64,000 nt of DNA. Origin: a phage. The position numbers and the translations under genes are program-made. Below the pieces are notes generated by a model that saw only the letters and a program-made list of their open reading frames with translations, had not been told where the DNA came from and made no database searches. The stretch is from NCBI GenBank assembly GCA_019326865.1, contig GCA_019326865.1_4101.1, one strand, 5' to 3'. Below, in pieces: positions 1 to 11,650 of this stretch (its first letter is position 1; each line of letters opens with the position of its first letter).

Positions 1-34
1 TTAAAGTATTTTTGCAAAAAGTAATAAAAAGTAC

Positions 35-62
35 TTGCACGATTAAGAGATTAGAGTATAAT
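35..62 (+). promoter_or_regulatory. sigma70-like promoter
   Basis: TTGCAC-16nt-TATAAT upstream of ATG 108. Confidence 0.5.
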
Positions 63-107
63 TAATTACATCAAGACAAGACACCTTAACTAACTGAGGA
101 TATAAAG

Positions 108-260
108 ATGAATACTTATGAACTGGATTGTTTTACTTTACAAGTAATGTCAGTATGCAGTAAAAAAGATTGGTCATCAAAGGAATTTAAAGCAGTTATT
201 GCGTGTGCAAAACACGGCAAGACTATCAATGAAACGGCATCAATCATTGATAAACTTTAA
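108..260 (+). CDS. hypothetical small protein (50 aa)
   Basis: hand-translated MNTYELDCF...IIDKL; SD GAGGA 6 nt upstream; below ORF-track size cutoff. Confidence 0.4.
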   Translation: MNTYELDCFTLQVMSVCSKKDWSSKEFKAVIACAKHGKTINETASIIDKL

Positions 261-268
261 AAAATAGT

Positions 269-297
269 TTGACAATAGTTTTAAGTACTGCGATAAT
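269..297 (+). promoter_or_regulatory. sigma70-like promoter
   Basis: TTGACA-17nt-GATAAT; same cassette recurs at 6834. Confidence 0.55.
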
Positions 298-331
298 ACA
301 TACATCAACTACTGAATAGGAATAAAAAACA

Positions 332-559
332 ATGGCTATCGTAATCACTCGCGTAACTGGTACTACTGGCACTGCTTCAAATGTTGCTGTAATTACTAAT
401 AAGAAAGGTGCAGAATTACATTTTGCAATGGATAAATGGGCCGTTAATGAGTTTGGTCAGTGGGCAAGTGTAGCATACATTGAAACCTATCAAGTGCCAT
501 CGATTAGCTTAACTGATTTAGGTGTAGAACGTATCCTTTGCCTGGATGAATTAAATTAA
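332..559 (+). CDS. hypothetical protein (75 aa)
   Basis: ORF track; SD AGGAAT upstream; promoter 269-297. Confidence 0.6.
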   Translation: MAIVITRVTGTTGTASNVAVITNKKGAELHFAMDKWAVNEFGQWASVAYIETYQVPSISLTDLGVERILCLDELN

Positions 560-567
560 AAAAGTAC

Positions 568-595
568 TTGCAAAGTAAATCGAATAAAGTATAAT
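568..595 (+). promoter_or_regulatory. sigma70-like promoter with 5' leader hairpin
   Basis: TTGCAA-16nt-TATAAT, followed by GGGGAGAA..TTCTCCCC stem-loop 608-628 and SD AAGAGGAAA. Confidence 0.55.
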
Positions 596-645
596 ACATT
601 ACATCAAGGGGAGAAAATGGTTCTCCCCACTAAGAGGAAACTAAT

Positions 646-789
646 ATGAAAACTTGTCAATGTGGTAAAAAATCTATTACTGGTTTGAAACGGGGCGTTG
701 CACTTTGCCAGTACCATTATAATTTACAAGTATGGGGTAAAGAATGGGCCGATCAGGTGGAAGCAATAAAGAAAGCAAAAAGTAAGTAA
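646..789 (+). CDS. hypothetical Cys-rich small protein (47 aa)
   Basis: hand-translated MKTCQCGKK...CQYHY...; SD AAGAGGAAA; below ORF-track cutoff. Confidence 0.45.
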   Translation: MKTCQCGKKSITGLKRGVALCQYHYNLQVWGKEWADQVEAIKKAKSK

Positions 790-869
790 AAAATATTATC
801 ACAGTACTATTGACATAGATTGATAGTACTGGCATAATAGATTTTATTAAAACAACTGAGGAAATTAAA
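790..869. repeat. promoter cassette copy 1 (about 80 bp, near-identical copies at 1081 and 3744)
   Basis: AAAATATTATCACAGTACTATTGACATAGATTGATAGTACTGGCATAATAG...GAGGAAATTAAA; contains TTGACA(810)-17-CATAAT. Confidence 0.8.
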
Positions 870-1082
870 ATGGCTATCATTACTAAAATCAAAGTAAACA
901 AAACACTGGTTAAGCTGGAACAAGTGAAAGAAGGTTATAAAGTATCTTGGTGCGGTATGTATCGGACGTTCGCAGATGTAGACGATGCAATCAATTACTA
1001 CACTGACACGGTTAAAAACTTTGTTCGTGCTGATGTGGTTATGGCAGTGGCAACATATAAAGCATCAAAAGAAAGTAAGTAA
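870..1082 (+). CDS. hypothetical protein (70 aa)
   Basis: ORF track; cassette promoter and SD GAGGAAA. Confidence 0.6.
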   Translation: MAIITKIKVNKTLVKLEQVKEGYKVSWCGMYRTFADVDDAINYYTDTVKNFVRADVVMAVATYKASKESK

Positions 1083-1164
1083 AAATATTATCACAGTACT
1101 ATTGACATAGATTGATAGTACTGGCATAATAGATTTTATCAAGACAACTAAGAGGAAATTAAAA
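1081..1164. repeat. promoter cassette copy 2
   Basis: near-identical to 790-869; TTGACA(1101)-17-CATAAT. Confidence 0.8.
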
Positions 1165-1509
1165 ATGGCTAACATCAATACTATAGCAGCACAAAATATC
1201 AACCTGTCTTCTGTTGAAGTTGTACACATTGCCGCCCGGCGTTGGTTCCAGGCGTCTTATGGTAATACGTATTTCTCTTTAACGGTAGATGTTGAAATCA
1301 ATGGCGAATTTATTGAAGTAGTAAACGTGCCGTTCCAATATGGCTACGGGGATCATTTTGACACTGTAGCAATGGAAGAATTTAGCAAGGTTATTAATAT
1401 GGAAGGTAAAGAGTTTTTACGCGGTTCTTATCTTTCCCGTTTTTGCCGTGATAATAATATCACTGTTTATAGTTCTGTTAGTGATGTTAAACGCAAAAAA
1501 GATCTTTAA
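1165..1509 (+). CDS. hypothetical protein (114 aa), paralog of 7526..7849
   Basis: ORF track; shares GNTY, YGYG and C-terminal DVKRKKD with 7526..7849. Confidence 0.65.
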   Translation: MANINTIAAQNINLSSVEVVHIAARRWFQASYGNTYFSLTVDVEINGEFIEVVNVPFQYGYGDHFDTVAMEEFSKVINMEGKEFLRGSYLSRFCRDNNITVYSSVSDVKRKKDL

Positions 1510-1589
1510 TTAGCTTTACTTTATGCAGATACTTTGATATAGTGTCTGCATAGGGGAAAGAAATTAAATCAACTTAAGAGGATAGTAAA

Positions 1590-1859
1590 ATGAAAAATAT
1601 CAGTACTTTAATCGATGCAGGTACACATGTTCGTCGGTCTATGGTTGCAACCAGTTCTACAAAACAAGTAGCGAGCGGTTATCTTGTATTTGTGCACGAT
1701 GGAAAACTCCTGGAACGTTCAATCAATTTTGATGTTAAAAACAATTGCCGTTTTATTATCTTTCGCCGTGAACAATACAAGATCGACATTCCAGCAAAGC
1801 CCATTAGCGGGGCGTACAACGTGCAATCATTGTTTGAGCGTCAACCATACACCTATTAA
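1590..1859 (+). CDS. hypothetical protein (89 aa)
   Basis: ORF track; SD AAGAGGA upstream; overlapping 1684..1911 frame rejected. Confidence 0.6.
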   Translation: MKNISTLIDAGTHVRRSMVATSSTKQVASGYLVFVHDGKLLERSINFDVKNNCRFIIFRREQYKIDIPAKPISGAYNVQSLFERQPYTY

Positions 1860-1910
1860 TCAAAACATCGTTAGCGGTCGATTTAGGCCGCTTATACTGG
1901 GGATTATATA

Positions 1911-2183
1911 ATGAATACTAATCAAGTACTGAATGAGATTGAAAGCATCATTAAACCGATGAAGCGTACTGATGCAATGTTAACACCGGAAGAATGCCGC
2001 CTATATGAGCGTTATAGCGTCGAACAAGTCCAGGAAATGGCTATGGCTATCCCTGCCGTTCAACAGCCTGAGAATGCGTCACAGGACGTTACAGGGGATT
2101 ATAACATCAATCCAGTACTAGGGAAGATTACACCAATTACCGAAGAAGAAAAAGACTACTTAAGCCAGTACTTAAAAGGTTAA
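1911..2183 (+). CDS. hypothetical protein (90 aa)
   Basis: ORF track; tightly packed after previous gene. Confidence 0.55.
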   Translation: MNTNQVLNEIESIIKPMKRTDAMLTPEECRLYERYSVEQVQEMAMAIPAVQQPENASQDVTGDYNINPVLGKITPITEEEKDYLSQYLKG

Positions 2184-2188
2184 TTAAT

Positions 2189-2398
2189 ATGCTTACTGTA
2201 CAGGATAAGATCGACATCTTAAAGGTTAATATGTATGTGATTGATGCAGATCCTGAAAAAGTATTTGCATACGATGATTCTAATCGTAGTCCTTTTTATT
2301 GTAGTCATGTAGTTGGATATGTGCCGTTATCGTATGTTATCGAAAGAGTGGTTGATTCAGCATACAAACATTTTTTAGAAAATAGTACTTGCAATTAG
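2189..2398 (+). CDS. hypothetical protein (69 aa)
   Basis: ORF track. Confidence 0.5.
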   Translation: MLTVQDKIDILKVNMYVIDADPEKVFAYDDSNRSPFYCSHVVGYVPLSYVIERVVDSAYKHFLENSTCN

Positions 2399-2416
2399 TT
2401 TTTAGTACTGTATAAT
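2389..2416 (+). promoter_or_regulatory. sigma70-like promoter with 5' leader hairpin
   Basis: TTGCAA-16nt-TATAAT; GGGGGG..TTCTCCCC hairpin 2429-2448. Confidence 0.5.
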
Positions 2417-2466
2417 GTTTTACATGAAGGGGGGAAATGATTCTCCCCAATAACAGGAGAAACAAA

Positions 2467-2619
2467 ATGAAACAATACAACGCTCGGTTTGATGTTACTA
2501 TCGGCAACGGCAAAGGTCAATTCTCTTTCAGTGCTCGTAAGAGTTATACAGAAAACTTCTTGCGTAATTGTGCACTGACCGCCGCACAAATTAAACATTA
2601 TTTTCAGGCTAAAAAATGA
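2467..2619 (+). CDS. hypothetical small protein (50 aa)
   Basis: start moved from track ATG 2437 (inside hairpin loop) to ATG after SD AGGAGAAAC. Confidence 0.5.
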   Translation: MKQYNARFDVTIGNGKGQFSFSARKSYTENFLRNCALTAAQIKHYFQAKK

Positions 2620-2705
2620 AATCATTAGCTTATTATAGCTCGGCCCTGGTCGGTGCATTGATCGCGGCATTGTTAGTAGCTTATCTATTCTTTATGGTGA
2701 TTTAA
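2616..2705 (+). CDS. hypothetical hydrophobic peptide (29 aa)
   Basis: hand-translated MKSLAYYSSALVGALIAALLVAYLFFMVI; ATGA-coupled to upstream gene; single TM-like helix. Confidence 0.3.
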   Translation: MKSLAYYSSALVGALIAALLVAYLFFMVI

Positions 2706-2843
2706 ATGAATCCTAACGGTATAATTTACAGTACTCCTAAAACTAAAGCAGATAAAGCGGAAGCACGTAAAGCGAAAGTAAAGGAGTACATCAAGCAAGG
2801 TATGACACGAAAGGCGGCGATTCTAAAAGCTAAAAATAAATGA
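2706..2843 (+). CDS. hypothetical basic small protein (45 aa)
   Basis: hand-translated MNPNGIIYSTPKTKADKAEARKAK...; directly follows previous stop. Confidence 0.35.
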   Translation: MNPNGIIYSTPKTKADKAEARKAKVKEYIKQGMTRKAAILKAKNK

Positions 2844-2975
2844 AAAAAAGTGGTTGACTTCGGTCAGCCATTTTGCTATTATATATTCATTGAGAGATAG
2901 CTCACTAGCCCACAGGGTGCGGGAGTGTATCTATTATATAAGTATTGAGTACTGAAAACTATTTTAAAAGTACAT
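2844..2975. repeat. intergenic element R copy 1 (terminator-like hairpin + promoter + conserved core)
   Basis: hairpin TGGTTGAC-TTCG-GTCAGCCA with flanking A/T runs; TTGACT(2854)-17-TATTAT; core CTAGCCCACAGGGTGCGGGAGTGTATC. Confidence 0.75.
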
Positions 2976-2986
2976 GTATAAAGTAC

Positions 2987-3014
2987 TTGCAAACTATCTC
3001 AATTGGCGTATAAT
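2987..3014 (+). promoter_or_regulatory. sigma70-like promoter with 5' leader hairpin
   Basis: TTGCAA-16nt-TATAAT; AGGGGAAA..TTTCCCCT hairpin 3028-3046. Confidence 0.55.
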
Positions 3015-3065
3015 GTTTTACATCGAGAGGGGAAACGGTTTCCCCTAGTAATAAGGAATAAAATC

Positions 3066-3407
3066 ATGACTATTGCAATTGTACAATCTAACTTTGAAAA
3101 TGAAATCATCGCCCAAGCACTGCGTTTAAATGATGGTCGGGCCGAAATTAATTACGGTTTCAATTCAGGCGGTTGTGAAAAATATCAGTACTTTATAACT
3201 GCTGATGGCGGTGTCCTGGGTATTAATACAGTTATTGTAAACATTCAGAAAATTAATTTCAATGATCCAGACGATAGCCAGTTTTACATTGTAGGCGTAG
3301 ACGTGAACTATGAGGATGACTCACTAACTGATGATTACACTGGCGAGAAGTTAGAAAGTGCATACGGTGAAGATGATTATCAGTCAGTACCGGAAGATTT
3401 TGAATAA
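3066..3407 (+). CDS. hypothetical acidic protein (113 aa)
   Basis: start moved from track 3003 to ATG after SD AAGGAAT; acidic C-terminus. Confidence 0.6.
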   Translation: MTIAIVQSNFENEIIAQALRLNDGRAEINYGFNSGGCEKYQYFITADGGVLGINTVIVNIQKINFNDPDDSQFYIVGVDVNYEDDSLTDDYTGEKLESAYGEDDYQSVPEDFE

Positions 3408-3421
3408 TATTAAAAAATAGT

Positions 3422-3449
3422 TTGACAATAGATTATAGTACTGTATAAT
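3422..3449 (+). promoter_or_regulatory. sigma70-like promoter with double leader hairpin
   Basis: TTGACA-16nt-TATAAT; two stem-loops (GGGAAGTTTTAAAAACTTCCC and GGGAGAATAGTTCTCCCC) before SD. Confidence 0.55.
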
Positions 3450-3531
3450 AGTTTACATCAAGGGCGACGGGAAGTTTTAAAAACTTCCCTATAGGGAGAA
3501 TAGTTCTCCCCACTAACAGAGAGAAAACAAA

Positions 3532-3744
3532 ATGGCTAATATCTGCACTGTACTGAAAAATGCAAAACAAGTTTTATTTTCTGATCACGATCATTTAAAC
3601 AAGGATATTACTGGCGTTCGGAATATCAAAGATGTAAAACGTGTTATGGGTATCTATTGCAATATGAAACGTGTCGGCACGTTCGGTAATAAATTTCTAT
3701 ACCAGGCGGGGGATTACAATTTTACACTGACTATCATTAACTAA
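3532..3744 (+). CDS. hypothetical protein (70 aa)
   Basis: ORF track; SD AGAGAGAAA. Confidence 0.6.
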   Translation: MANICTVLKNAKQVLFSDHDHLNKDITGVRNIKDVKRVMGIYCNMKRVGTFGNKFLYQAGDYNFTLTIIN

Positions 3745-3823
3745 AAATATTATCACAGTACTATTGACATAGATTGATAGTACTGGCATAATAGATTTTA
3801 TTAAAACAACTGAGGAAATTAAA
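3744..3823. repeat. promoter cassette copy 3
   Basis: near-identical to 790-869; TTGACA(3764)-17-CATAAT. Confidence 0.8.
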
Positions 3824-4003
3824 ATGGCTATCATCGCAAAAACTGAAATCATCGGCCTGGATTCTATCATCATGACGTTTGAAGATCAAAAAGGTATGTA
3901 TGTAGTTTCCTATGGTGATTATGTTCGGGAGTATGAAACGGTAGACGAAGCCTTTGAAAGTTACATTCGCCAGGTGAATAAAGCATACGACGATTACCGC
4001 TAA
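3824..4003 (+). CDS. hypothetical protein (59 aa)
   Basis: hand-translated MAIIAKTEIIGLD...DDYR; same cassette and N-terminal MAII as 870..1082. Confidence 0.5.
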   Translation: MAIIAKTEIIGLDSIIMTFEDQKGMYVVSYGDYVREYETVDEAFESYIRQVNKAYDDYR

Positions 4004-4030
4004 AATATATTACCAGTACTATCAAAGCTA

Positions 4031-4058
4031 TTGACAACGTTTGATAGTACTGTATAAT
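4031..4058 (+). promoter_or_regulatory. sigma70-like promoter
   Basis: TTGACA-16nt-TATAAT. Confidence 0.55.
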
Positions 4059-4104
4059 AAGTTTTATCAACTGTAGTTAACTTAACAAAAGAGAGAGAAA
4101 CAAA

Positions 4105-4248
4105 ATGATCGCACTGGATTCATTCATCGATGCAGTTCTGGCAAAAACTGGCGAGGATCTGACCGCAGAACAATACGCGATGATCGAGCAATGCCAGCAA
4201 GACGGTAAATCGGTGAAAGATACTGTTAAGATTATCCGCAAGATGTAA
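4105..4248 (+). CDS. hypothetical small protein (47 aa)
   Basis: hand-translated MIALDSFIDAVLAKTGEDL...; SD AGAGAGAGAAA; followed by hairpin AGCCCA..TGGGCT. Confidence 0.45.
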   Translation: MIALDSFIDAVLAKTGEDLTAEQYAMIEQCQQDGKSVKDTVKIIRKM

Positions 4249-4354
4249 GATTATAAGCCCATTAGTTAACGCTGGTGGGCTTTAATCATTTACCCTATAC
4301 AATGCCAGTACTAAACCGTTTATCTCGTTAGAATGCATTACAGGACGTTTAACA

Positions 4355-4552
4355 ATGATTAGCATGAAATCAGTACAAAAACAAATAGAAACATTATCAA
4401 AAATTAAACGTAAACAGTACTCATTAGAATATAATATCAATGGTAACTATCATCTAATGAAAGAGAATAATTTTATCGTCATTGATGAATCATTGCAAAT
4501 TATTAGTATAGTACTGAAAGCATTAATTAATGATAGAAAAAGGTTAAAATAA
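4355..4552 (+). CDS. hypothetical protein (65 aa)
   Basis: ORF track; no strong promoter seen. Confidence 0.4.
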   Translation: MISMKSVQKQIETLSKIKRKQYSLEYNINGNYHLMKENNFIVIDESLQIISIVLKALINDRKRLK

Positions 4553-4809
4553 TGGCAGTAGGATTCGCGAAAGATGGAGCCGAGCAAGATGAGATTAACG
4601 CAGTTATTCAAGCCGCCGTTAACCACGCTAGAAAGCAAATTAACGCACAAATAGAATCACTGATACATTGCCTCGACTGCGGCGATAAAATCCCTGAGAA
4701 TCGCCGACAGGCTGTTAAGGGATGTAAGTACTGCATAACCTGCCAGGAAGATCATGATAGTACTTTTAAACGAGATCCGCGTAATTGTTGGCATAGATCT
4801 ATGAGATAA
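4552..4809 (+). CDS. TraR/DksA-type C4 zinc-finger protein
   Basis: CLDCGDKIPENRRQAVKGCKYCITCQ = C-x2-C-x17-C-x2-C typical of TraR/DksA fingers. Confidence 0.55.
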   Translation: MAVGFAKDGAEQDEINAVIQAAVNHARKQINAQIESLIHCLDCGDKIPENRRQAVKGCKYCITCQEDHDSTFKRDPRNCWHRSMR

Positions 4810-4816
4810 AAAGTAA

Positions 4817-4844
4817 TTGACAGTACTGAAAGATAGTGTATAAT
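4817..4844 (+). promoter_or_regulatory. sigma70-like promoter
   Basis: TTGACA-16nt-TATAAT. Confidence 0.55.
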
Positions 4845-4873
4845 GTTTTATATCTTAACTGAGGATAGAAATC

Positions 4874-5230
4874 ATGGGAATACAACATATCACGCTGACC
4901 ACTGACAATGGCGAGATCACTGGTTATCAAGTACAGGGCAAAGTAGCACAATTGCAGTACTGGTTTGTTAAACGTGGAATCATTGCACCGGATCTTGATT
5001 ATGACCGTGTAGCGTTTATTGATTCTCTTTATGTTGATCCTGAAAGTCGGGGCAATGGTGAAGGTAACGAATTAATGAATGCCTTTATTGATGCCGCCGA
5101 TGATTCAGATTGTATCATTTTAGAATGCGATACGGGAGAAGATAACGCCTTCAATCTTAAAGAATGGTATGAAGGTTTCGGATTCGAAGTACTGATCGAT
5201 AGTGAATATCCTATCATGATTTTATCATAG
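4874..5230 (+). CDS. small GNAT-family acetyltransferase-like protein
   Basis: VDPESRGNGEGNELM resembles GNAT motif A (R-G-x-G-x-G); NAFNLKEWYEGFGF resembles motif B. Confidence 0.5.
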   Translation: MGIQHITLTTDNGEITGYQVQGKVAQLQYWFVKRGIIAPDLDYDRVAFIDSLYVDPESRGNGEGNELMNAFIDAADDSDCIILECDTGEDNAFNLKEWYEGFGFEVLIDSEYPIMILS

Positions 5231-5244
5231 TACTAAAAAAGTAA

Positions 5245-5272
5245 TTGACAGTACTATCAGATAGTATATAAT
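5245..5272 (+). promoter_or_regulatory. sigma70-like promoter with 5' leader hairpin
   Basis: TTGACA-16nt-TATAAT; AGGGGAA..TTCCCCT hairpin 5283-5302. Confidence 0.55.
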
Positions 5273-5319
5273 GTTTTACATAGAGGGGAAACATCTTCCC
5301 CTACTAAGAGGAAAGAAAA

Positions 5320-5508
5320 ATGGAAAACTTATCAAGTATTTTAGTACAAGATGATTTTGGTAATCCTGGAAGTGCTATCATTGTTCGGGGTAATAAAGCA
5401 ACGTTTGTTATTGCTGGTGGACCTGTACAGCGTAGCATTAAAAACAATGCTGTTACTATTAATAATGTACGCTATCGCTTAGATAAAGAATTGATTCATA
5501 AACTGTAA
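5320..5508 (+). CDS. hypothetical protein (62 aa)
   Basis: ORF track; SD AAGAGGAAAG. Confidence 0.55.
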   Translation: MENLSSILVQDDFGNPGSAIIVRGNKATFVIAGGPVQRSIKNNAVTINNVRYRLDKELIHKL

Positions 5509-5535
5509 TATTAATTTAATAGAGGATAACAATAA

Positions 5536-5859
5536 ATGTACATTCATACTACTATCACAAAGGAAGTCCGTTGCCAGTTCGAAAGTATTCCGGGCGTATG
5601 TTTCATCACTGGTACGTTTTCCCCTGGTGATCGTGATAATCCAGTACTGTTACAGTTACGCCATCCATTATGGGATAAAGCATTTGATCTACCGTTGAAT
5701 GAATTCGCAACTACTGCTGAAAAGTACATTAAAAATATTCGCGAGAATGATCGACTATTCATTAATGCTTTTAGTGATTCCGCGTTAAGCGAGATCCACG
5801 GCGTATTGGTTGCAATCATGGAATCAATGGAGAAAACTAAATTCAAACAAGGTGAATAA
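5536..5859 (+). CDS. hypothetical protein (107 aa)
   Basis: ORF track; SD AGAGGATAA. Confidence 0.6.
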   Translation: MYIHTTITKEVRCQFESIPGVCFITGTFSPGDRDNPVLLQLRHPLWDKAFDLPLNEFATTAEKYIKNIRENDRLFINAFSDSALSEIHGVLVAIMESMEKTKFKQGE

Positions 5860-5865
5860 AAACTA

Positions 5866-5893
5866 TTGACAATGTAATCTAGTACTGTATAAT
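5866..5893 (+). promoter_or_regulatory. sigma70-like promoter with 5' leader hairpin
   Basis: TTGACA-16nt-TATAAT; GGGGAGAAATGATTCTCCC hairpin. Confidence 0.55.
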
Positions 5894-5943
5894 AAGTTAC
5901 ATGAAGGGGAGAAATGATTCTCCCTACTAAGAGGAAAGAAAAA

Positions 5944-6156
5944 ATGCAAGGTCAACTAATCGTTCGTAAATGGTCTGATACTAATGAAAAACCGTGGGAT
6001 GTACAATACATCGGACCGGATGGGGTATCACGTTATCAGCCTGGCGTAACGCATAGTACTGAGCAATATGCCGCCGCTCATCGTGAACGCCTGTTAGAAT
6101 CTATGCAACAGGGTTTAGGTGAAAAATTCATTCAAGATCATTGGCTGAAAGATTAA
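5944..6156 (+). CDS. hypothetical protein (70 aa)
   Basis: start moved from track 5914 (ATG in hairpin loop) to ATG after SD AAGAGGAAAG. Confidence 0.55.
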   Translation: MQGQLIVRKWSDTNEKPWDVQYIGPDGVSRYQPGVTHSTEQYAAAHRERLLESMQQGLGEKFIQDHWLKD

Positions 6157-6164
6157 AAAGTACT

Positions 6165-6191
6165 TGTGTAGTATAGAAAATAAAGTATAAT
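6165..6191 (+). promoter_or_regulatory. sigma70-like promoter with 5' leader hairpin
   Basis: TTGTGT-15nt-TATAAT; GGAAGGGGAATAGTTCCCCTCC hairpin. Confidence 0.45.
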
Positions 6192-6242
6192 GTTTAATAC
6201 AGGAAGGGGAATAGTTCCCCTCCTAACAAAAAGGAAAGTAAC

Positions 6243-6416
6243 ATGATTCATGTAGAATTGTCAGTACTGAGAGATTTGTTTTATCGGATGGGTACTACTG
6301 GCGAATATCCGAAGGGTGATACTGCAAAACTTTTTGTATCTCTCGACTTATGGCAACGCGAACAATTAGTAATGTCGTGGCGTAAAGGTAAAGCAGATCG
6401 CGAGGTGAAAGCATGA
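6243..6416 (+). CDS. hypothetical protein (57 aa)
   Basis: hand-translated MIHVELSVLRDLFYRMG...; SD AAAGGAAAG. Confidence 0.4.
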   Translation: MIHVELSVLRDLFYRMGTTGEYPKGDTAKLFVSLDLWQREQLVMSWRKGKADREVKA

Positions 6417-6562
6417 AAGAATTTTTATTCGAAGTAGTTTTTATTGGTGTAAGTAGTCACCAATTGATTCGCTCAAGTGGTTACAATGTTTGCCAGGCAT
6501 GGAATAACATTAAACAAATGTACCCGAACGCTATCACATATCGCAACCCAAAACAAGTTTAA
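6413..6562 (+). CDS. hypothetical protein (49 aa)
   Basis: hand-translated MKEFLFEVVFIGVSSHQ...; ATGA-coupled to upstream ORF. Confidence 0.35.
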   Translation: MKEFLFEVVFIGVSSHQLIRSSGYNVCQAWNNIKQMYPNAITYRNPKQV

Positions 6563-6570
6563 AAATAATT

Positions 6571-6705
6571 AAAAAAAGGATTGACTTCGGTCAGTCCTTT
6601 TTGCTATTATATATTCATTGAGAGATAGCTCACTAGCCCACAGGGTGCGGGAGTGTATCTATTATATGTTGGTGGGTGTATTATCTAGTACTGAAAACTA
6701 TTTGA
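6571..6705. repeat. intergenic element R copy 2
   Basis: hairpin GGATTGAC-TTCG-GTCAGTCC; TTGACT(6581)-18-TATTAT; conserved core as in copy 1. Confidence 0.75.
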
Positions 6706-6715
6706 TAAAAAGTAC

Positions 6716-6743
6716 TTGCATTGTACTTAGAATCAAGTATAAT
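6716..6743 (+). promoter_or_regulatory. sigma70-like promoter driving an ORF-less structured leader
   Basis: TTGCAT-16nt-TATAAT; followed by about 80 nt with nested inverted repeats and no ORF before the next promoter. Confidence 0.45.
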
Positions 6744-6833
6744 GTTTTACATCAGGACAGGGAACGAAATAAGTAACTTCCCGTTAAGTAGCCCAGGAGT
6801 AAGGCATACGAAAAACTCCCCTGATAAAATAGT

Positions 6834-6862
6834 TTGACAATAGTTTTAAGTACTGATAAAAT
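6834..6862 (+). promoter_or_regulatory. sigma70-like promoter
   Basis: TTGACA-17nt-TAAAAT; cassette homologous to 269-330. Confidence 0.5.
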
Positions 6863-6894
6863 AATCACATCAACTACTGATAAGGAAACATAAA

Positions 6895-7170
6895 ATGCGG
6901 GTTCTTCTGACAGCTAACGAAATCGAGCAAGTACTTACTACTAACCTGGAACAATGGAAACGTGAAGCAGATATCCAGGCGGTTCAATTGTTAAATGAGA
7001 AGTTAACGCCGGATGATTTAAGTAAGATTGTAGATCCTCAATTCTACGAAGATATTCACGACACCGCGTTAAGCGTCGAGGATGTACTAGATAAACACTA
7101 CATTGATACTAATTTACAGGGTTACGGTCGTAAAAATTTTATTACTATTCACGACATTTACAATAATTAA
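6895..7170 (+). CDS. hypothetical protein (91 aa)
   Basis: ORF track; SD AAGGAAAC. Confidence 0.6.
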   Translation: MRVLLTANEIEQVLTTNLEQWKREADIQAVQLLNEKLTPDDLSKIVDPQFYEDIHDTALSVEDVLDKHYIDTNLQGYGRKNFITIHDIYNN

Positions 7171-7173
7171 GTA

Positions 7174-7201
7174 TTGACAAAGTATCTTAGTACTGTATAA
7201 T
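7174..7201 (+). promoter_or_regulatory. sigma70-like promoter with 5' leader hairpin
   Basis: TTGACA-16nt-TATAAT; GAGGGGAATGGTTCCCCTC hairpin; cassette repeated at 7443. Confidence 0.6.
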
Positions 7202-7256
7202 AGTTTACATCAAGTGAGGGGAATGGTTCCCCTCCTAACAAAGAGAGAAATAAAAA

Positions 7257-7439
7257 ATGGCTAAGTGCACTATCTGTAAGAAAGAAATAGTATTAGTTCC
7301 AAGTGCCCGTGAGCGTGCAGCTCGGTTCGGTGGCAAAGCGTCAGACTATACAAAAATGTTTACTACTCATGCAAATTGCCAGGTAGCAAAACGTTCACAA
7401 GAAAGCGTAGAATTAATGCGTAAACTTTCCAAAAAATAA
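7257..7439 (+). CDS. hypothetical Cys-containing protein (60 aa)
   Basis: ORF track; CTIC...H..C possible zinc ligands. Confidence 0.55.
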   Translation: MAKCTICKKEIVLVPSARERAARFGGKASDYTKMFTTHANCQVAKRSQESVELMRKLSKK

Positions 7440-7442
7440 GTA

Positions 7443-7470
7443 TTGACAAAGTATCTTAGTACTGTATAAT
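7443..7470 (+). promoter_or_regulatory. sigma70-like promoter with 5' leader hairpin
   Basis: TTGACA-16nt-TATAAT; near-identical to 7174 cassette. Confidence 0.6.
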
Positions 7471-7525
7471 AGATTACATCAAGTGAGGGGAAACGGTTCC
7501 CCTCCTAACAAAGAGAGAAATAAAA

Positions 7526-7849
7526 ATGACTATGATCCTTGCCCAGAAAGTAGAACTGAAAATTGTAACTTCCTTTGACATTAAAGTTAATCGCTGGACT
7601 GATCGGAACGGTAATACTTACCACTCTTGCTACGTGTCTGCATTGATTGGTGATCGTTGGGAAGACTTGGGACACGAAACCTTTACATACGGTTACGGTA
7701 CGCAAGGCGAATACACTGGTTTGGAGATCATTAAAGAAACCGTTATAGGTTTCAACCCGAAAGAAAAAGTTATTCACCGCATCGAAAAAGAGATTAATAA
7801 AGAAATAACAGTTCGCTACTACGATGTAAAACGTAAGAAAGACATGTAA
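7526..7849 (+). CDS. hypothetical protein (107 aa), paralog of 1165..1509
   Basis: ORF track; shared YGYG and C-terminal DVKRKKD. Confidence 0.65.
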   Translation: MTMILAQKVELKIVTSFDIKVNRWTDRNGNTYHSCYVSALIGDRWEDLGHETFTYGYGTQGEYTGLEIIKETVIGFNPKEKVIHRIEKEINKEITVRYYDVKRKKDM

Positions 7850-7871
7850 TAGAATCCATTTAAAGTACTAT

Positions 7872-7900
7872 TTGACATTACACAGATAGTACTTTATAAT
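7872..7900 (+). promoter_or_regulatory. sigma70-like promoter
   Basis: TTGACA-17nt-TATAAT. Confidence 0.55.
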
Positions 7901-7935
7901 AGACTCTAACTTGTAGTATTAACTTAACTAATAGG

Positions 7936-8340
7936 ATGTATACCATGATTACTAAATTCTACGCTACCCGTGAAGCTGCCCGTATTGTTGCACGCGAGGA
8001 AGGAGCGGCATTTAAAGACATGGGCAAAGATGCACCGAAAGGCCAACGCTGGAGCGTACAGTTCAAAGAAATCTCTGATATTGTGAATTCACCTGAACCA
8101 GTACTGACAGCAGCAGAACAGAAGAAAGCTGATGAACTGGCGGCAATTCTTAACGCTCAAGATGAATTCGTCGAGGGTGCTGATATCCAGGTTGTAGTAA
8201 ATTCGAATGCATGGACTCACGCGGATCATCTGGCTAACCTGAAGCGTCCAAGCGTATTGATTCGCAACCATAAAGAGATCCGACACGACCGCAAGGGCAA
8301 CCGTGTTACTGTATACAGTAAACGCCGCCAGGTTATCTAA
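7936..8340 (+). CDS. hypothetical protein (134 aa)
   Basis: ORF track; alternative start ATG 7945; followed by terminator. Confidence 0.6.
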   Translation: MYTMITKFYATREAARIVAREEGAAFKDMGKDAPKGQRWSVQFKEISDIVNSPEPVLTAAEQKKADELAAILNAQDEFVEGADIQVVVNSNAWTHADHLANLKRPSVLIRNHKEIRHDRKGNRVTVYSKRRQVI

Positions 8341-8362
8341 TACCTAGCAGTACTAACAACAC

Positions 8363-8388
8363 GGCGGGATCTGTTCCCGCCTTTTTTA
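8363..8388 (+). terminator. rho-independent terminator
   Basis: GGCGGGA-TCTGT-TCCCGCC followed by TTTTTT. Confidence 0.7.
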
Positions 8389-8402
8389 CAGGATAAACTA
8401 AA

Positions 8403-8657
8403 ATGATTAAGGTAAAACTATCTAAAGATAATATCTTGCGGGTACACTATAAAGCCCCTCAGAGAATCATCACAAAGGCCGTACAGCTTGCGAATGAGTT
8501 TATTAATGGTAATCTATTACCTAGGAAGTTAAGCAACGGAAAACTGCGTGTAATCGATGTAGACACTAACAACAGAATAGTAATAGAGAATACCGGAAAG
8601 ATAAACCTATATGAACACCAACAATATAATAAGAAAATAAAACTAATTAGTCGTTGA
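8403..8657 (+). CDS. hypothetical protein (84 aa)
   Basis: ORF track. Confidence 0.55.
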   Translation: MIKVKLSKDNILRVHYKAPQRIITKAVQLANEFINGNLLPRKLSNGKLRVIDVDTNNRIVIENTGKINLYEHQQYNKKIKLISR

Positions 8658-8711
8658 CAGTACTCAAATGTTTTAGTACTATATATCTATACCAACACGG
8701 AGAGAAACAAA

Positions 8712-8930
8712 ATGAAATTATCTAAAATCGAAAAGAAAACTATTGACGTAGCTATCCAACATGGTTACACCTTTCGTAATGATTTACATTTTACCAATTT
8801 TCAACAAGGGTATCGTACTATTAAAAAACTAATTGACAAAGGTTTATTAGTTAAAGTAGACAACGGCAACGGCGTTGAATATCAACCAACACAGGACGCA
8901 TTTAATTTTAAGAAATATAATATTATCTAA
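8712..8930 (+). CDS. hypothetical protein (72 aa), possible winged-helix DNA binder
   Basis: ORF track; promoter TTGACA 8654; IKKLIDKGLLVKVDNGNG wing-like segment (weak). Confidence 0.5.
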   Translation: MKLSKIEKKTIDVAIQHGYTFRNDLHFTNFQQGYRTIKKLIDKGLLVKVDNGNGVEYQPTQDAFNFKKYNII

Positions 8931-8987
8931 TTGACAGTACTCAAATGTTTTAGTACTATATCTATACCAACACAGGAAAAAAACAAA

Positions 8988-9572
8988 ATGCGTAATTATA
9001 CTAAATTCATCCGTACACTGTCAGAAATGGAAACCAACAAAGAGATCTTGACAGCTTGTCGGTTAGCTGGTCTGGAGATCATCGGTGCGGGGTCTTCCCG
9101 TATTGTATTCGCTTTAAATGATCGGTTAGTGATTAAGGTCGCGAATTGTGATGCGGGTGTAGAACAAAATGAAACAGAATGTAAAGTATGGAATTTTTTA
9201 GATTATGACCGACCTCAGTTGAAACAGTTCTTTGCTAAAGTACATATGCATTTAAGCGATCCTGATAATATGTTTATTGTTATGGATCGGTTGAGTACTG
9301 CAAGTAAAGGCAGTGTAAAGCACGTTAACGCGTGCAACGAATTAAAGTACAATATTAAACGTAATGCAATCGAACGCCAGCACCGCTTTGCTGATGCACT
9401 ACAACACGTCGATGATACATTATCAACACTAACGATCAGAGATATCAGAAAACAGAATATCGGACAGGATCGAAATGGACTGATTAAAGTACTTGATTAT
9501 GGTTTAACCCGCAATATCTGGAATCAGTACTATAAAAAGCGTGATGTAAAAGCCGTAACTATAACACGATAA
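8988..9572 (+). CDS. compact protein-kinase-like protein (194 aa)
   Basis: start moved from track TTG 8931; Gly-loop IGAGSSRIVF, VIKV lysine, catalytic-loop-like RDIRKQN, DFG-like LDYG. Confidence 0.5.
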   Translation: MRNYTKFIRTLSEMETNKEILTACRLAGLEIIGAGSSRIVFALNDRLVIKVANCDAGVEQNETECKVWNFLDYDRPQLKQFFAKVHMHLSDPDNMFIVMDRLSTASKGSVKHVNACNELKYNIKRNAIERQHRFADALQHVDDTLSTLTIRDIRKQNIGQDRNGLIKVLDYGLTRNIWNQYYKKRDVKAVTITR

Positions 9573-9580
9573 AAAAGATT

Positions 9581-9705
9581 AAAAAAGGGATTGACTCCGG
9601 TCAGTCCCTTTGCTATTATATATTCATTGAGAGATAGCTCACTAGCCCACAGGGTGCGGGAGTGTATCTATTATATAAGTATTGAGTACTGAAAACTATT
9701 TTTAA
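9581..9705. repeat. intergenic element R copy 3
   Basis: hairpin GGGATTGAC-TCCG-GTCAGTCCC; TTGACT(9591)-17-TATTAT; conserved core. Confidence 0.75.
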
Positions 9706-9713
9706 AAAGTACT

Positions 9714-9740
9714 TGCATTGTACTTAGATTCAAGTATAAT
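9714..9740 (+). promoter_or_regulatory. sigma70-like promoter with 5' leader hairpin
   Basis: TTGCAT-15nt-TATAAT; imperfect GGGGGAACGTCCC hairpin; SD AAGGAAT. Confidence 0.55.
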
Positions 9741-9787
9741 GTTTTATATCGAGAGGGGGAACGTCCCTGATAATAAGGAATAAAATC

Positions 9788-10009
9788 ATGACTACAATGA
9801 CTTGCATTTACGCTTCCAATCTTCTGAATGATGCTGTTTTTAATGTTGATTCAGAATATCAATGTTATCGGGATGAAAATAAAAAAGTTTTTGTAGTTGA
9901 TAATAATGGTTTCCATATTGAATTACAATCCGGCTTCACTGGTGTTGATGGTAAATCAGTATGGGGCGTACAGGATGATAAAGGCACATATCATTTTAAA
10001 CGTAATTAA
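9788..10009 (+). CDS. hypothetical protein (73 aa)
   Basis: ORF track; SD AAGGAAT. Confidence 0.6.
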   Translation: MTTMTCIYASNLLNDAVFNVDSEYQCYRDENKKVFVVDNNGFHIELQSGFTGVDGKSVWGVQDDKGTYHFKRN

Positions 10010-10012
10010 GTA

Positions 10013-10040
10013 TTGACAAAGTATCTTAGTACTGTATAAT
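10013..10040 (+). promoter_or_regulatory. sigma70-like promoter with double leader hairpin
   Basis: TTGACA-16nt-TATAAT; same double hairpin as at 3460-3510. Confidence 0.6.
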
Positions 10041-10124
10041 AGTTTACATCAAGGGCAACGGGAAGTTTTAAAAACTTCCCTATAGGGAGAACAGTTCTCC
10101 CCGATACTAAAAGGAAACAAAAAT

Positions 10125-10397
10125 ATGTCTAGCTACTCCGCTACTATGATCATTAAAGATATGAACGGTAATCCTACTGCTGCTGGTGGATCATTTGGAA
10201 ACATTAACTTAGATGGTCGGTTAACCATGCAATCAGCCATCAATGCAGCGAAAGAAGTTTTTAAGAATGAATGCACTGTAAGTAAGCTGGATTATATGGG
10301 ATTCGCTATCGAGAAAACTAATCGTTTTGTGAACTACAAAAATCCACTGATGATTGATACTAACCTGAAAGCTAACGAAGTGGAATACTTATTATGA
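10125..10397 (+). CDS. hypothetical protein (90 aa)
   Basis: ORF track; SD AAAGGAAAC. Confidence 0.6.
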   Translation: MSSYSATMIIKDMNGNPTAAGGSFGNINLDGRLTMQSAINAAKEVFKNECTVSKLDYMGFAIEKTNRFVNYKNPLMIDTNLKANEVEYLL

Positions 10398-10585
10398 CAG
10401 TTGAAGAAGTTAAAAAAGTACTGGCAGTTCTACGCTATCATAACCATTGCAAGGTGAAGAATGATTCTGATTATCTTGATTCATCCCTTGAGGAAGACAC
10501 ATTAAACGCAATAAGCTATATGCAAACATTATTAAAACGTATGACCGAAAAGAATAGACCGGACTATATCGGAAATAAAATTTAA
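10394..10585 (+). CDS. hypothetical protein (63 aa)
   Basis: ORF track; ATGA-coupled. Confidence 0.5.
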   Translation: MTVEEVKKVLAVLRYHNHCKVKNDSDYLDSSLEEDTLNAISYMQTLLKRMTEKNRPDYIGNKI

Positions 10586-10593
10586 AAAGTACT

Positions 10594-10620
10594 TGCATTG
10601 TAGTTAGATTAACGTATAAT
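10594..10620 (+). promoter_or_regulatory. sigma70-like promoter with 5' leader hairpin
   Basis: TTGCAT-15nt-TATAAT; GAGGGGAAATGGTTTCCCCTC hairpin. Confidence 0.55.
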
Positions 10621-10671
10621 GTTTTATATCGAGAGGGGAAATGGTTTCCCCTCAAGTCCAGGAGATACACA

Positions 10672-10935
10672 ATGAACACTATCGAAATCACTATCAATGC
10701 TCACGTATACGACAACGTAGTACTGCAAACTACTATGACCGCTAATGATACCAGTACTTTGCGGAATACTGTTATTAGTGCTGTATGTGCCGCTATCGGT
10801 GATGTCGCCCTGGAAAATGCAAAACACGTAAACGATGGTTTCACTATGTGCAAGCGTGATAACGCAAAACATATCATCGTAGAAGGTTACGGCGGTGTAG
10901 AATATAATGTTTATATGAAAAAAGTACTTGCATAA
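10672..10935 (+). CDS. hypothetical protein (87 aa)
   Basis: ORF track; SD CAGGAGA; 3' end overlaps next promoter. Confidence 0.6.
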   Translation: MNTIEITINAHVYDNVVLQTTMTANDTSTLRNTVISAVCAAIGDVALENAKHVNDGFTMCKRDNAKHIIVEGYGGVEYNVYMKKVLA

Positions 10936-10955
10936 TAACTAAAACAAAGTATAAT
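10928..10955 (+). promoter_or_regulatory. sigma70-like promoter with 5' leader hairpin
   Basis: TTGCAT-16nt-TATAAT; GGGGGAGATATCCTCCCCC hairpin. Confidence 0.55.
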
Positions 10956-11002
10956 GTTTTGCATAGGGGGAGATATCCTCCCCCACTAAAAGGAGTAATA
11001 AA

Positions 11003-11227
11003 ATGGCTAACTTTGATGAACTGATGCGGGAAGTAGCTAACCTGGCAGAAGAGAAGAAATCATTCGATTCTATCTATAACACCTCTTACCGTGATTCAGT
11101 ACTGGCATGTAACCAGGATCAAAAAGATGAACTAATCGCCACCTATTATGAAGCATGGAAGTACTACCGACAATGGGAGAAAGAAGAAAGTGAGTCTACC
11201 ATTGACGGCCTCAATAATCTAATCTAA
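11003..11227 (+). CDS. hypothetical protein (74 aa)
   Basis: ORF track; SD AAAGGAG. Confidence 0.6.
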   Translation: MANFDELMREVANLAEEKKSFDSIYNTSYRDSVLACNQDQKDELIATYYEAWKYYRQWEKEESESTIDGLNNLI

Positions 11228-11245
11228 AGTTTTATTTCAGTACTA

Positions 11246-11274
11246 TTGACATAGATTGATAGTACTGATATGAT
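11246..11274 (+). promoter_or_regulatory. sigma70-like promoter
   Basis: TTGACA-17nt-TATGAT; partial copy of the 790 cassette. Confidence 0.45.
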
Positions 11275-11302
11275 AACTTTACTATCTACAAGGGGAAACA
11301 TC

Positions 11303-11560
11303 ATGGAACAATTCACACAATATCGGGTAAATCCTCAAGCTATGGCATACGTAGAAGACCATAAAACGTTACCAGTACAAACACCAATTAAAGGCCATAT
11401 CTATCGTGCAATGTCATGGAATCCGGCCCAGTATGGCTATAACACCGTAGCCGTGGGCATGTACTGCGGCAATGGTGAATGGTTTGATCCTAACAATCCG
11501 ATTGCACTTGATAGTACTGAAAAAATGAAATGGGCCGACTACATCGAAGATATTTCATAA
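11303..11560 (+). CDS. hypothetical protein (85 aa)
   Basis: start moved from track 11270 (ATG inside -10 region) to ATG after SD AAGGGGAAA. Confidence 0.55.
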   Translation: MEQFTQYRVNPQAMAYVEDHKTLPVQTPIKGHIYRAMSWNPAQYGYNTVAVGMYCGNGEWFDPNNPIALDSTEKMKWADYIEDIS

Positions 11561-11567
11561 AAATTAT

Positions 11568-11595: not shown

Positions 11596-11650
11596 GTTTT
11601 ACATAGAGCGGGGGAATAGTTCTCCCGCCAATAGTTTGGAGTAAAACATT

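Follow-up and report, generated by a model that had tools for sequence, protein, structure and literature searches.

It is well established that λ, P2, VP882 and the F plasmid use TraR-type proteins to reprogram host RNA polymerase (RNAP). F-plasmid TraR and λ Orf73 (5W1S, 6N57; PMC9239242) are regulators that act through the RNAP secondary channel, and the activity of both requires the two Asp residues of a DxxDxA motif, which lies on an N-terminal helix and extends to the active-site region (PMC9239242). The TraR homologues of five phages or prophages bind to RNAP and act as inhibitors of rRNA promoters; λ Orf73 represses the promoters of rRNA and ribosomal protein genes and makes the host grow more slowly; and it has been suggested that an N-terminal extension might in part explain why VHML Orf8 is less active (PMC9239242). 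E. coli YbiI (2KGO; NF008243) is an uncharacterised protein of the same DksA/TraR family, for which an iron-related role has been proposed (PMC2613031). The same authors reported, as ‘data not shown’, that YbiI at a high level rescues ΔdksA auxotrophy (PMC2613031), and this is the sole functional datum on the protein.

Among phage GNAT acetyltransferases, Rac (gp28 of LUZ19 and phiKMV-like phages) causes the α subunit of RNAP to be cleaved (PMC7552054); it has been linked to inactivation of host transcription, and serves in the literature as the model of a phage GNAT acting by modification of host proteins. A further GNAT family has been described beside an ART domain in phage polyvalent proteins (Iyer et al. 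2017, PMC5512222). In T4-type phages, repeated promoter/stem-loop units around small accessory genes are known as PeSLs (promoter-early stem-loop; PMC2839356, PMC4122927).

The window that we analysed, a stretch of 64,000 nucleotides, comes, judging by the 92–94% nucleotide identity of the region to Asteriusvirus genomes, from an Asteriusvirus-type jumbo coliphage, a giant phage of E. coli. An earlier note on this DNA had placed a TraR/DksA-type zinc finger at 4552..4809 and a minimal GNAT acetyltransferase at 4874..5230, and had proposed that the two fit a host shut-off module behind strong early promoters. Open reading frames of 85 and 118 aa do lie at these positions on the + strand. In sister phages the near-identical genes are already labelled ‘DksA-like zinc-finger protein’ and ‘acetyltransferase’ in GenBank, so that the domain-level identity of both is already known from these public records.

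Both genes sit in an array of small + strand genes, most of which have their own consensus σ70 promoter. Ten perfect promoters fall within 3.4–11.6 kb, all on the + strand, where 0.013 would be expected, and the intergenic regions are filled by repeat families of promoter and stem-loop sequences (D1–D10). According to the annotation of a close relative, the array lies inside a 21.5-kb direct terminal repeat; in fEgEco12 a repeat of 20,993 bp has been confirmed by restriction digests (PMC13070987). Early expression would be consistent with this setting of a dense σ70 array within a terminal repeat. We found neither expression nor proteomic data for the two genes in the Asteriusvirus literature that we searched, and an Rfam scan of the whole window gave no match at the gathering score. 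Purifying selection acts on the two genes (dN/dS 0.04–0.12 against four relatives). Our overall reading, which we regard as probable, is that a promoter-dense terminal repeat here carries two independent small genes, one encoding a YbiI-like TraR/DksA finger and the other a reduced GNAT.

On the strength of profiles, alignments and an AF2 model, we place the product of 4552..4809, a C4 zinc-finger protein, in the YbiI-like branch of TraR/DksA. Its 45 bits exceed the cut-off of the Pfam model zf-dskA_traR (PF01258; 24.9), and it matches PHROG 54, ‘DksA-like zinc-finger protein’, at 3.8e-19. The nearest solved structures by sequence are E. coli YbiI (2KGO, 2.7e-12) and then TraR (8e-6). The YbiI equivalog NF008243 is the top-scoring NCBIfam model, yet at 82.2 bits against 96 the match is below its cut-off, as is that to TIGR02419, the phage/conjugal plasmid TraR subfamily (52.8 bits against 59.7). 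The AF2 model, which is of moderate confidence (pLDDT 71) and least certain at the N-terminus, places helices at residues 5–29 and 62–72, and its predicted helix–knuckle–helix shape resembles that of RNAP-bound TraR. A Foldseek search with this model returned YbiI 2KGO first, followed by the TraR–RNAP complexes 6N57 and 5W1S, and then DksA. Thus, profile and fold both bear out the assignment made in the earlier note. Residues 60–85 also match PHROG 25948; a second domain or overlapping gene was considered on this basis and rejected, the match being to a remnant of 54 aa in Mosigvirus, in which nothing but the second CxxC and the tail survives.

YbiI is the best match to the finger in both sequence and fold. 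The 88-aa bacterial members of the family, which their sources name only as ‘TraR family’, show 42–52% identity to the finger in the family alignment and 49–62% by local BLAST. The phage and bacterial proteins are nearly equal in length (85 and 88 aa) and share the N-terminus MAxG[FW]AKDGAxQ, the C4 finger and an IPExRR motif. The zinc ligands C40, C43, C61 and C64 (CxxC-N17-CxxC) are invariant in 57 homologues, and the 12-residue N-terminus, MAxGFAKDGAxQ, is almost invariant across phage and bacterial YbiI-like members. The two clades differ at position 11, with Glu in phage members and Val in bacterial members, and at the C-terminus, where each has its own invariant tail: FKRxPRNCWHRSMR in the phages, NRRGSKDSQLR in the bacteria. 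The basic tail of the present protein reads FKRDPRNCWHRSMR. Gene context differs as well, the finger being phage-borne whereas YbiI belongs to an iron-regulated host operon. Relatives of the finger are found in 675 phage records, many of them from T4-like and jumbo virulent phages.

Like TraR and λ Orf73, the finger is predicted to consist of one N-terminal helix, a C4 zinc knuckle and a C-terminal helix, and as with these two, its gene belongs to a mobile element and its host is a proteobacterium with the βSi1 and β′Si3 insertions in RNAP. R51 and R52, which are invariant in the 57 homologues, align by phmmer and MAFFT with the ARR residues of TraR and are the equivalents of TraR R48/R49 (rim helices/β′Si3); they stand at the same distance from the first Cys, with 11 residues from C40 to R51 as from C37 to R48. 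There are also differences. Identity to TraR and λ Orf73 is only 30–40%, the N-terminus is 2–5 residues longer, depending on the register, and there is an extra basic tail of 13 residues. [quoted passage not shown] The DxxDxA motif is incomplete in every register, reading F5xxD8xA10 in the MAFFT alignment or D8xxE11xD13 in the spacing register. The carrier, too, is a virulent jumbo phage rather than a plasmid or temperate phage. Against the earlier suggestion that the finger could act on host RNAP through the secondary channel stands the lack of the complete DxxDxA that full TraR activity needs (PMC9239242), although the RR pair is retained.

We propose that the finger would dock in the secondary channel of host RNAP without binding DNA, and would disfavour initiation at promoters whose open complexes are short-lived, those of the rRNA and ribosomal protein genes. 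Given the incomplete DxxDxA tip motif and the extended N-terminus, its potency or outcome is probably unlike that of TraR. The phage's own consensus promoters, which have AT-rich discriminators, should be insensitive to the finger. Even for the characterised homologues, ‘shut-off’ is too strong a term, as what λ Orf73 does is to reprogram transcription (PMC9239242).

An alternative is that the YbiI-like finger is not an initiation reprogrammer of the TraR kind at all, and that the MAxGFAKDGAxQ N-terminus and the clade-specific tail serve some other end: reaching far into the secondary channel to alter or block catalysis or elongation, keeping the host factors DksA or GreA/B off RNAP, or engaging a partner other than RNAP. 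The near-invariance of the first 12 residues in proteins that lack a canonical DxxDxA would fit such a role, as would the separate invariant tails of the phage and bacterial clades and the possible tie between the N-terminal extension of VHML Orf8 and its lower activity (PMC9239242). There are precedents in the family, in that certain TraR/DksA-family proteins act unlike DksA, and the TraR of VP882 acts in complex with a partner protein. In contrast, the finger keeps both the RNAP-contact residues R51/R52 and a TraR-like overall shape, and the reported rescue of ΔdksA by overexpressed YbiI points to a DksA-like action. The literature that we searched contained no published functional test of the YbiI-like branch. 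On balance we consider this alternative unlikely, and retain TraR-like action in the secondary channel, with a probably different potency or outcome, as the preferred reading.

The promoter arrangement of the two genes is not the same. The closest consensus promoter 5′ of the zinc-finger gene is a perfect TTGACA-N16-TATAAT (12/12 match) at 4031..4058 on the + strand, which we assign to a 47-aa ORF (4105..4248). Between this ORF and the unit that contains the finger lies a terminator-like stem-loop (4245..4293, + strand), a strong hairpin followed by UUUAAUCAUUU. Its folding energy is −21.8 kcal/mol (z = −5.1), none of 200 shuffles folded equally well, and PBECO4 keeps it with pair-preserving changes. 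The finger unit begins with a 65-aa ORF without an assigned function (4355..4552, + strand; phrog_36844; dN/dS about 0.08–0.13), whose stop codon overlaps the zinc-finger ATG (TAATG), and this overlap suggests translational coupling of the two. Directly 5′ of the unit no σ70-like promoter was found at 9/12 or better, and manual inspection of 4250–4354 gave a lone TAGAAT without a −35 element. With no recognisable promoter and a terminator-like hairpin upstream, the finger gene is no more than a candidate for early expression. Of the strong early promoters invoked in the earlier note, therefore, the one for the GNAT is present and one for the finger is not.

That promoter of the GNAT is a second perfect TTGACA-N16-TATAAT (4817..4844, + strand, 12/12), 30 nt 5′ of the start codon; it is preceded by an A-rich stretch, its discriminator is AT-rich, and a GAGGA Shine-Dalgarno sequence follows. 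On the other side of the gene, the next perfect promoter (5245–5272) and its 5′ stem-loop (GGGGAA/TTCCCC, 5285–5301) form the downstream boundary of the cassette at 5245..5301 on the + strand. Homology with Shigella phage SF1-1, which has the GNAT without the zinc finger, runs from the −10 box of the 4817–4844 promoter onward, and the homology block ends within the flanking promoters. The cassette is absent from PBECO4, its GNAT is frameshifted in CMSTMSU, and an unrelated 146-kb phage carries the GNAT at 94% identity. In all, the cassette occurs in only 25 phage records, and by record counts about one in three of the relatives that keep the finger lack the GNAT. On this distribution, the GNAT is a facultative, self-contained promoter-plus-gene cassette, which is gained, lost and exchanged among unrelated coliphages through recombination in the repeated promoter/stem-loop sequences. 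The notion of a host shut-off pair is not borne out by relatives in which the GNAT is lost, frameshifted or without a finger. A co-inherited operon of the two genes was considered separately and is ruled out by the distribution in PBECO4, SF1-1 and the record counts.

The arrangement is like that of PeSL cassettes in that consensus early promoters and stem-loop repeats flank small accessory genes, and in that the presence or absence of the GNAT and its exchange boundaries fall in such units; the likeness is one of arrangement of the units, rather than of motif sequence aligned with published PeSLs. The units also differ in location, since those of T4-type phages belong to hyperplastic regions, whereas the present ones lie in the Asteriusvirus terminal repeat and are common to a Stephanstirmvirinae-like phage.

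The product of 4874..5230 (+ strand, 118 aa) is a reduced GNAT acetyltransferase by its profiles, motif A and AF2 model. The earlier note was right on this assignment too, and for both proteins the curated Pfam thresholds are passed, so that the refutation named in the note, a lack of profile support, does not apply. Here the matches are to Acetyltransf_1 (PF00583; 37.3 bits against 20.7) and Acetyltransf_7 (PF13508; 33.7 bits against 27), together with PHROG 1249, ‘acetyltransferase’, at 3.4e-10. The AF2 model (pLDDT 91, pTM 0.84) has the predicted topology β-β-α-β-α-β-α-β-β, and Foldseek matches it with probability 1.0 to Naa60, NatC and other GNATs at a TM of about 0.6, as well as to many viral GNATs of 104–127 aa. 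The Pfam matches reach only the C-terminal half (profile positions 53–116 of 116), and the N-terminal arm is incomplete, with two strands and one helix before the motif-A strand in place of the full β1-α1-α2-β2-β3; the ‘mini’ label is justified by this reduced arm and partial coverage. Motif A (Q/R-x-x-G-x-G/A), which binds the acetyl-CoA pyrophosphate, is R59-G-N-G62-E-G64. Across 54 family members R59 and G62 are conserved in at least 90%, G64 and Y99 are invariant and D86 is nearly so. Y99 and D86 presumably occupy the general acid/base positions of RimI-type enzymes. From motif and model, the enzyme looks catalytically competent.

When PDB profiles were searched to place the protein in a particular GNAT subfamily, the matches were all generic. 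The word-seeded search for homologues returned just two proteins, and the family was recovered by an exhaustive search of representatives. The N-terminal domain of one protein, P0080, aligns over the full query length at 38% identity (BLASTP 6e-22), and is followed by PARP/ART and ParB_N domains. This architecture fits the polyvalent-protein GNAT family found beside an ART domain, in which, as in the present family, solo and fused versions coexist; the placement of P0080 there is made by matching the published description (PMC5512222). The present GNAT is a solo 118-aa protein with its own promoter, outside any long multidomain protein. The neighbourhoods of distant relatives are phage-like, mobile-element-like or plain bacterial chromosomal, and no consistent partner gene was found beside them.

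The GNAT may acetylate a host protein, in the service of takeover or of counter-defence. Rac offers a parallel for takeover as a phage-encoded predicted GNAT, but there is no detectable sequence relationship between the two and the hosts differ: in a tblastn search of 50,697 phage records, all matches to the GNAT were from phages of Escherichia, Shigella or Klebsiella, and none was from Pseudomonas or phiKMV-like phages. A more specific proposal, which we consider rather unlikely, is that the GNAT is a counter-defence enzyme, which would acetylate and so inactivate a host immunity protein, in the way that AcrVA5 disarms Cas12a, or else detoxify a small molecule. Its patchy, accessory distribution in the genus and the near-identical copies in an unrelated coliphage are in keeping with this, as are the fusion of the family domain to ART and ParB in a polyvalent-type protein (PMC5512222) and the mobile-element neighbourhoods of distant relatives, which contain a DNA methylase and a weak match to Anti-Pycsar Apyc1-like proteins. 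AcrVA5 is described as an acetyltransferase which inactivates Cas12a (10.1101/2021.11.16.468554). Set against this, AcrVA5 lies outside the best 60 PDB profile matches and the top 50 Foldseek matches, nothing points to a target, and the PADLOC models, a library of defence rather than anti-defence proteins, gave no match to the GNAT, nor to the finger. As for detoxification, models of aminoglycoside and arsinothricin acetyltransferases match far below their cut-offs.

It is highly improbable that the GNAT is instead toxin-like, acetylating aminoacyl-tRNA in the manner of TacT, AtaT and KacT and so halting host protein synthesis. Foldseek does list AtaT and related toxin structures (6gtr, 6ajm, 7byy), but only from rank 24 downward, at a TM of about 0.5–0.6 and 13–16% identity, and dozens of unrelated GNATs match at least as well. 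An antitoxin-like partner gene is absent, and the phage depends on host translation. Acetylation of a host protein remains our preferred reading of the GNAT.

Taken together, host-takeover roles for both genes are plausible. One might go further and see in the mini-GNAT a horizontally mobile counter-defence enzyme that would disable a specific E. coli immunity protein by acetylating it, by analogy with AcrVA5 and Cas12a, and in the finger, with its invariant, extended N-terminus and its tail peculiar to phages, a mechanistically distinct class of RNAP secondary-channel effector that T4-like and jumbo virulent phages would have in common, but we think this combined view distinctly unlikely. Neither gene changes current understanding. 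Their interest lies in the fact that the YbiI-like branch occurs in hundreds of large virulent phages and in enterobacterial chromosomes, and that its incomplete DxxDxA makes the finger a natural experiment on the role of the tip motif. The mini-GNAT, for its part, is a small protein and a candidate for a phage enzyme that modifies proteins, and its distribution indicates that single promoter-plus-gene cassettes move between unrelated coliphages.

The earlier note had described two early regulators, a TraR/DksA-type zinc finger ('the finger') at 4552..4809 and a minimal GNAT acetyltransferase at 4874..5230, and ORFs of 85 and 118 aa are indeed present there on the + strand. Both domain calls are correct, each protein passing its Pfam cut-offs, and both are already public in sister-phage records: in ph0011 the homologues are annotated as 'DksA C4-type domain-containing protein' and 'N-acetyltransferase domain-containing protein'. 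Comparison with ph0011, PBECO4, vB_Ec-M-J and SF1-1 indicates purifying selection on both genes, with dN/dS of 0.04–0.09 for the finger and 0.07–0.12 for the GNAT.

The finger scores 45 bits against Pfam zf-dskA_traR (cut-off 24.9) and matches PHROG 54 at 3.8e-19. Its nearest solved structure is Escherichia coli YbiI (2KGO, 2.7e-12), with TraR as solved in RNAP complexes coming next (8e-6). The best NCBIfam model is the YbiI equivalog, which falls below its cut-off (82 versus 96 bits), and TIGR02419, the phage/plasmid TraR subfamily, is just missed (52.8 versus 59.7). The AF2 model (pLDDT 71) consists of a long N-terminal helix (5–29), the knuckle, a helix at 62–72 and a less ordered tail, and Foldseek ranks YbiI first, then TraR on RNAP (6N57, 5W1S), then DksA proteins. 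In an alignment of 57 homologues the four cysteines are invariant, as is the R51 R52 pair inside a conserved IPExRR, and an almost invariant N-terminus, MAxG[FW]AKDGAxQ, is common to phage and bacterial members. The C-terminal tail, in contrast, differs by clade, reading FKRxPRNCWHRSMR in phages (Asteriusvirus together with T4-like Dhakavirus, Moonvirus and Yersinia phages) and NRRGSKDSQLR in bacteria.

TraR function needs three features: an N-terminal DxxDxA helix, R48 and R49 of the globular domain, and a C-terminal helix contacting βSi1 (PMC9239242, Gopalkrishnan et al.). The arginines have counterparts in R51/R52 of the finger, at identical spacing from the first cysteine, and a C-terminal helix is also predicted. 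However, DxxDxA, whose D3 and D6 are both required in TraR and in λ Orf73 (PMC9239242), is incomplete in either register. MAFFT places the near-invariant D8-G-A10 opposite D6-E-A8 of TraR and D6-S-A8 of Orf73, so that aromatic F5 takes the place of D3; when the register is instead set by spacing, D8 to C40 equals D3 to C35 of Orf73 (32 residues), and the finger reads D8xxE11xD13. In both registers its N-terminus is 2–5 residues longer than that of TraR. As for the YbiI branch, overexpression of YbiI rescues ΔdksA auxotrophy (data not shown in that report), and an iron-related role has been suggested (PMC2613031); our literature search found no later functional study of YbiI. Judged by homology, the finger is likely to bind in the RNAP secondary channel, where its predicted effect on initiation may be weaker than that of TraR, or different. 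A host-RNAP-directed role is the best-supported mechanism for the finger, by homology to a branch for which no published functional test was found; one defining motif is incomplete.

Of 50,697 phage records, 675 contain relatives of the finger, among them T4-like phages of Escherichia, Klebsiella, Acinetobacter and Enterobacter, jumbo phages of Erwinia, Vibrio and Klebsiella, and lambdoid Stx phages. In PBECO4 (KC295538; local positions 2882–3139) the gene is intact, without annotation in the GenBank/RefSeq record. In Dhakavirus the gene is one of a group of small ORFs that follow the thymidine kinase gene. Mosigvirus has in the same place a 54-aa remnant, reduced to the second CxxC plus the tail, which accounts for the finger's second PHROG match. 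In Mosigvirus vB_EcoM-RPN187 (local positions 2417–2581) this protein has an unrelated N-terminus, after which come the second CxxC and then the invariant tail, IYCVGCQSMHDEIFKREPRNCWHRSMR; either the gene is in decay, or its persistence points to an independent function of the tail.

The GNAT passes the Pfam cut-offs for Acetyltransf_1, _7 and _10, though the matches are confined to the half of each profile that holds motifs A and B. Its AF2 model is confident (pLDDT 91, pTM 0.84), with the topology β(4-10)-β(13-21)-α(25-33)-β(45-54)-α(63-74)-β(80-84)-α(95-101)-β(105-108)-β(114-117), and has only two strands and one helix before the motif-A strand, in contrast to the canonical β1-α1-α2-β2-β3. 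Foldseek gave a probability of 1.0 against Naa60, NatC, Ard1 and many other GNATs, and likewise against many viral GNATs of 104–127 aa, so small viral GNATs are common. Whereas a word-seeded search returned near-identical proteins only, an exhaustive search yielded 285 representatives, mostly 117–140 aa long and with full-length alignments. Conservation in this family of the acetyl-CoA motif (R59, G62, G64), of D86 (nearly invariant, where the predicted fifth strand, 80–84, ends), of Y99 (invariant, inside helix 95–101) and of an N-terminal G(S)xxGYxV...EQxxNW motif speaks for catalytic activity, and the protein is very probably an active acetyltransferase.

Domains of this GNAT family also form part of larger proteins, such as P0080, where the domain precedes PARP/ART and ParB_N domains (BLASTP 6e-22), and P0127, where it is joined to an amidoligase domain. 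These fusions fit the description of the (pro)phage polyvalent-protein GNAT family, a member of the RimI-like clade with adjoining ART domains, solo versions and predicted protein substrates (Iyer et al., PMC5512222). In a later survey, jumbo-phage GNATs were predicted to act on host RNAP as phiKMV Rac does (PMC7824862; PMC7552054); a search of phage records detected no homology of this GNAT to Rac. Its substrate is probably a protein; its PDB profile matches are generic and the gene contexts of distant relatives are mixed.

A perfect σ70-type promoter (4817–4844, +) lies 30 nt upstream of the GNAT gene, and the next (5245–5272, +) follows it. PBECO4 lacks the GNAT entirely, the next small gene directly following its unannotated finger gene, and the CMSTMSU copy is frameshifted. 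A GNAT of 94% identity, without the finger, is present in Shigella phage SF1-1 (146 kb, not an Asteriusvirus); the block in common starts at the upstream promoter's −10 box and extends no further than the stem-loop past the downstream promoter. The GNAT is therefore a facultative mobile promoter-plus-gene cassette rather than the finger's fixed partner, and it behaves as an accessory element. A coordinated 'host shut-off module' is unsupported. Translational coupling is suggested for the finger gene and the 65-aa ORF directly upstream (orf65, 4355..4552). No σ70-like promoter was found for this unit, which a strong terminator-like hairpin precedes, so the placing of both genes behind strong early promoters is right for the GNAT alone. 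Between orf65 and the finger, PBECO4 and vB_Ec-M-J have an additional cassette with promoter-like sites and a 48-aa ORF.

The gene region is 92–94% identical in nucleotide sequence to Asteriusvirus jumbo coliphages (such as ph0011, PBECO4, 121Q and JP4; genomes of about 350 kb). The left end of vB_Ec-M-J is colinear with the window, position 1 corresponding to about 7.5 kb there, and its annotated direct terminal repeat of 21,525 bp projects to an end near 13,350. Restriction digests confirmed a terminal repeat of 20,993 bp in the relative fEgEco12 (PMC13070987), and the GNAT gene is found twice in records containing both repeat copies; the finger and GNAT genes thus lie inside a long terminal repeat. 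G+C is 0.35–0.39 in the gene-bearing stretch versus about 0.30–0.33 beyond, with a drop from about 0.37 to about 0.31 around the point (~13350) where the repeat is inferred to end. Past the repeat end in vB_Ec-M-J (local positions 21600–27000), densely packed, overlapping ORFs of 65–85 aa, alike in size, form a long series that looks like a paralogous gene array.

Elsewhere in the repeat region, the 213-aa ORF at 8931..9572 (+) has a weak, sub-threshold kinase match (Pkinase, 18.4 bits versus a cut-off of 31.7) and its ph0011 homologue carries the annotation 'protein kinase domain-containing protein'; the product is a possible host-modifying kinase like T7 gp0.7. Two further ORFs, 1165..1509 and 7526..7849 (+), both match PHROG 6246 and are paralogues within one early array. 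Four copies of a 12–13-bp hairpin, AAAGGGATTGACTCCGGTCAGTCCCTTT, followed by GCTATTATAT (2847–2874, 6573–6602, 9584–9611 and 11868–11895, +; repeat families D7 and D9), carry a TTGACT −35-like box in the 5' arm and a TG-extended TATTAT in the tail, which is why the element scored as both terminator-like and promoter-like; a composite terminator/promoter unit is a possible reading.

Perfect TTGACA-N16/17-TATAAT sites number 10 in the first 12 kb of the window, where 0.013 would be expected, and all of them are on the + strand. The same stretch contains repeated promoter units that fall into several families; in many of them a GGGGAA/TTCCCC-type stem-loop and then a Shine-Dalgarno sequence come after the promoter. 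Over 1–12500 (+) there are at least 30 such units, most with both elements after them, so that almost all of the small genes have a unit each. In one variant the sequence is AAAAAGTACTTGCA...GTATAATGTTTTACAT, another carries TTGACA, and an AGTACT palindrome recurs inside or beside the spacers. The units resemble the PeSL cassettes of T4-type phages (PMC2839356, PMC4122927), and their arrangement is a PeSL-like architecture in the Asteriusvirus terminal repeat.
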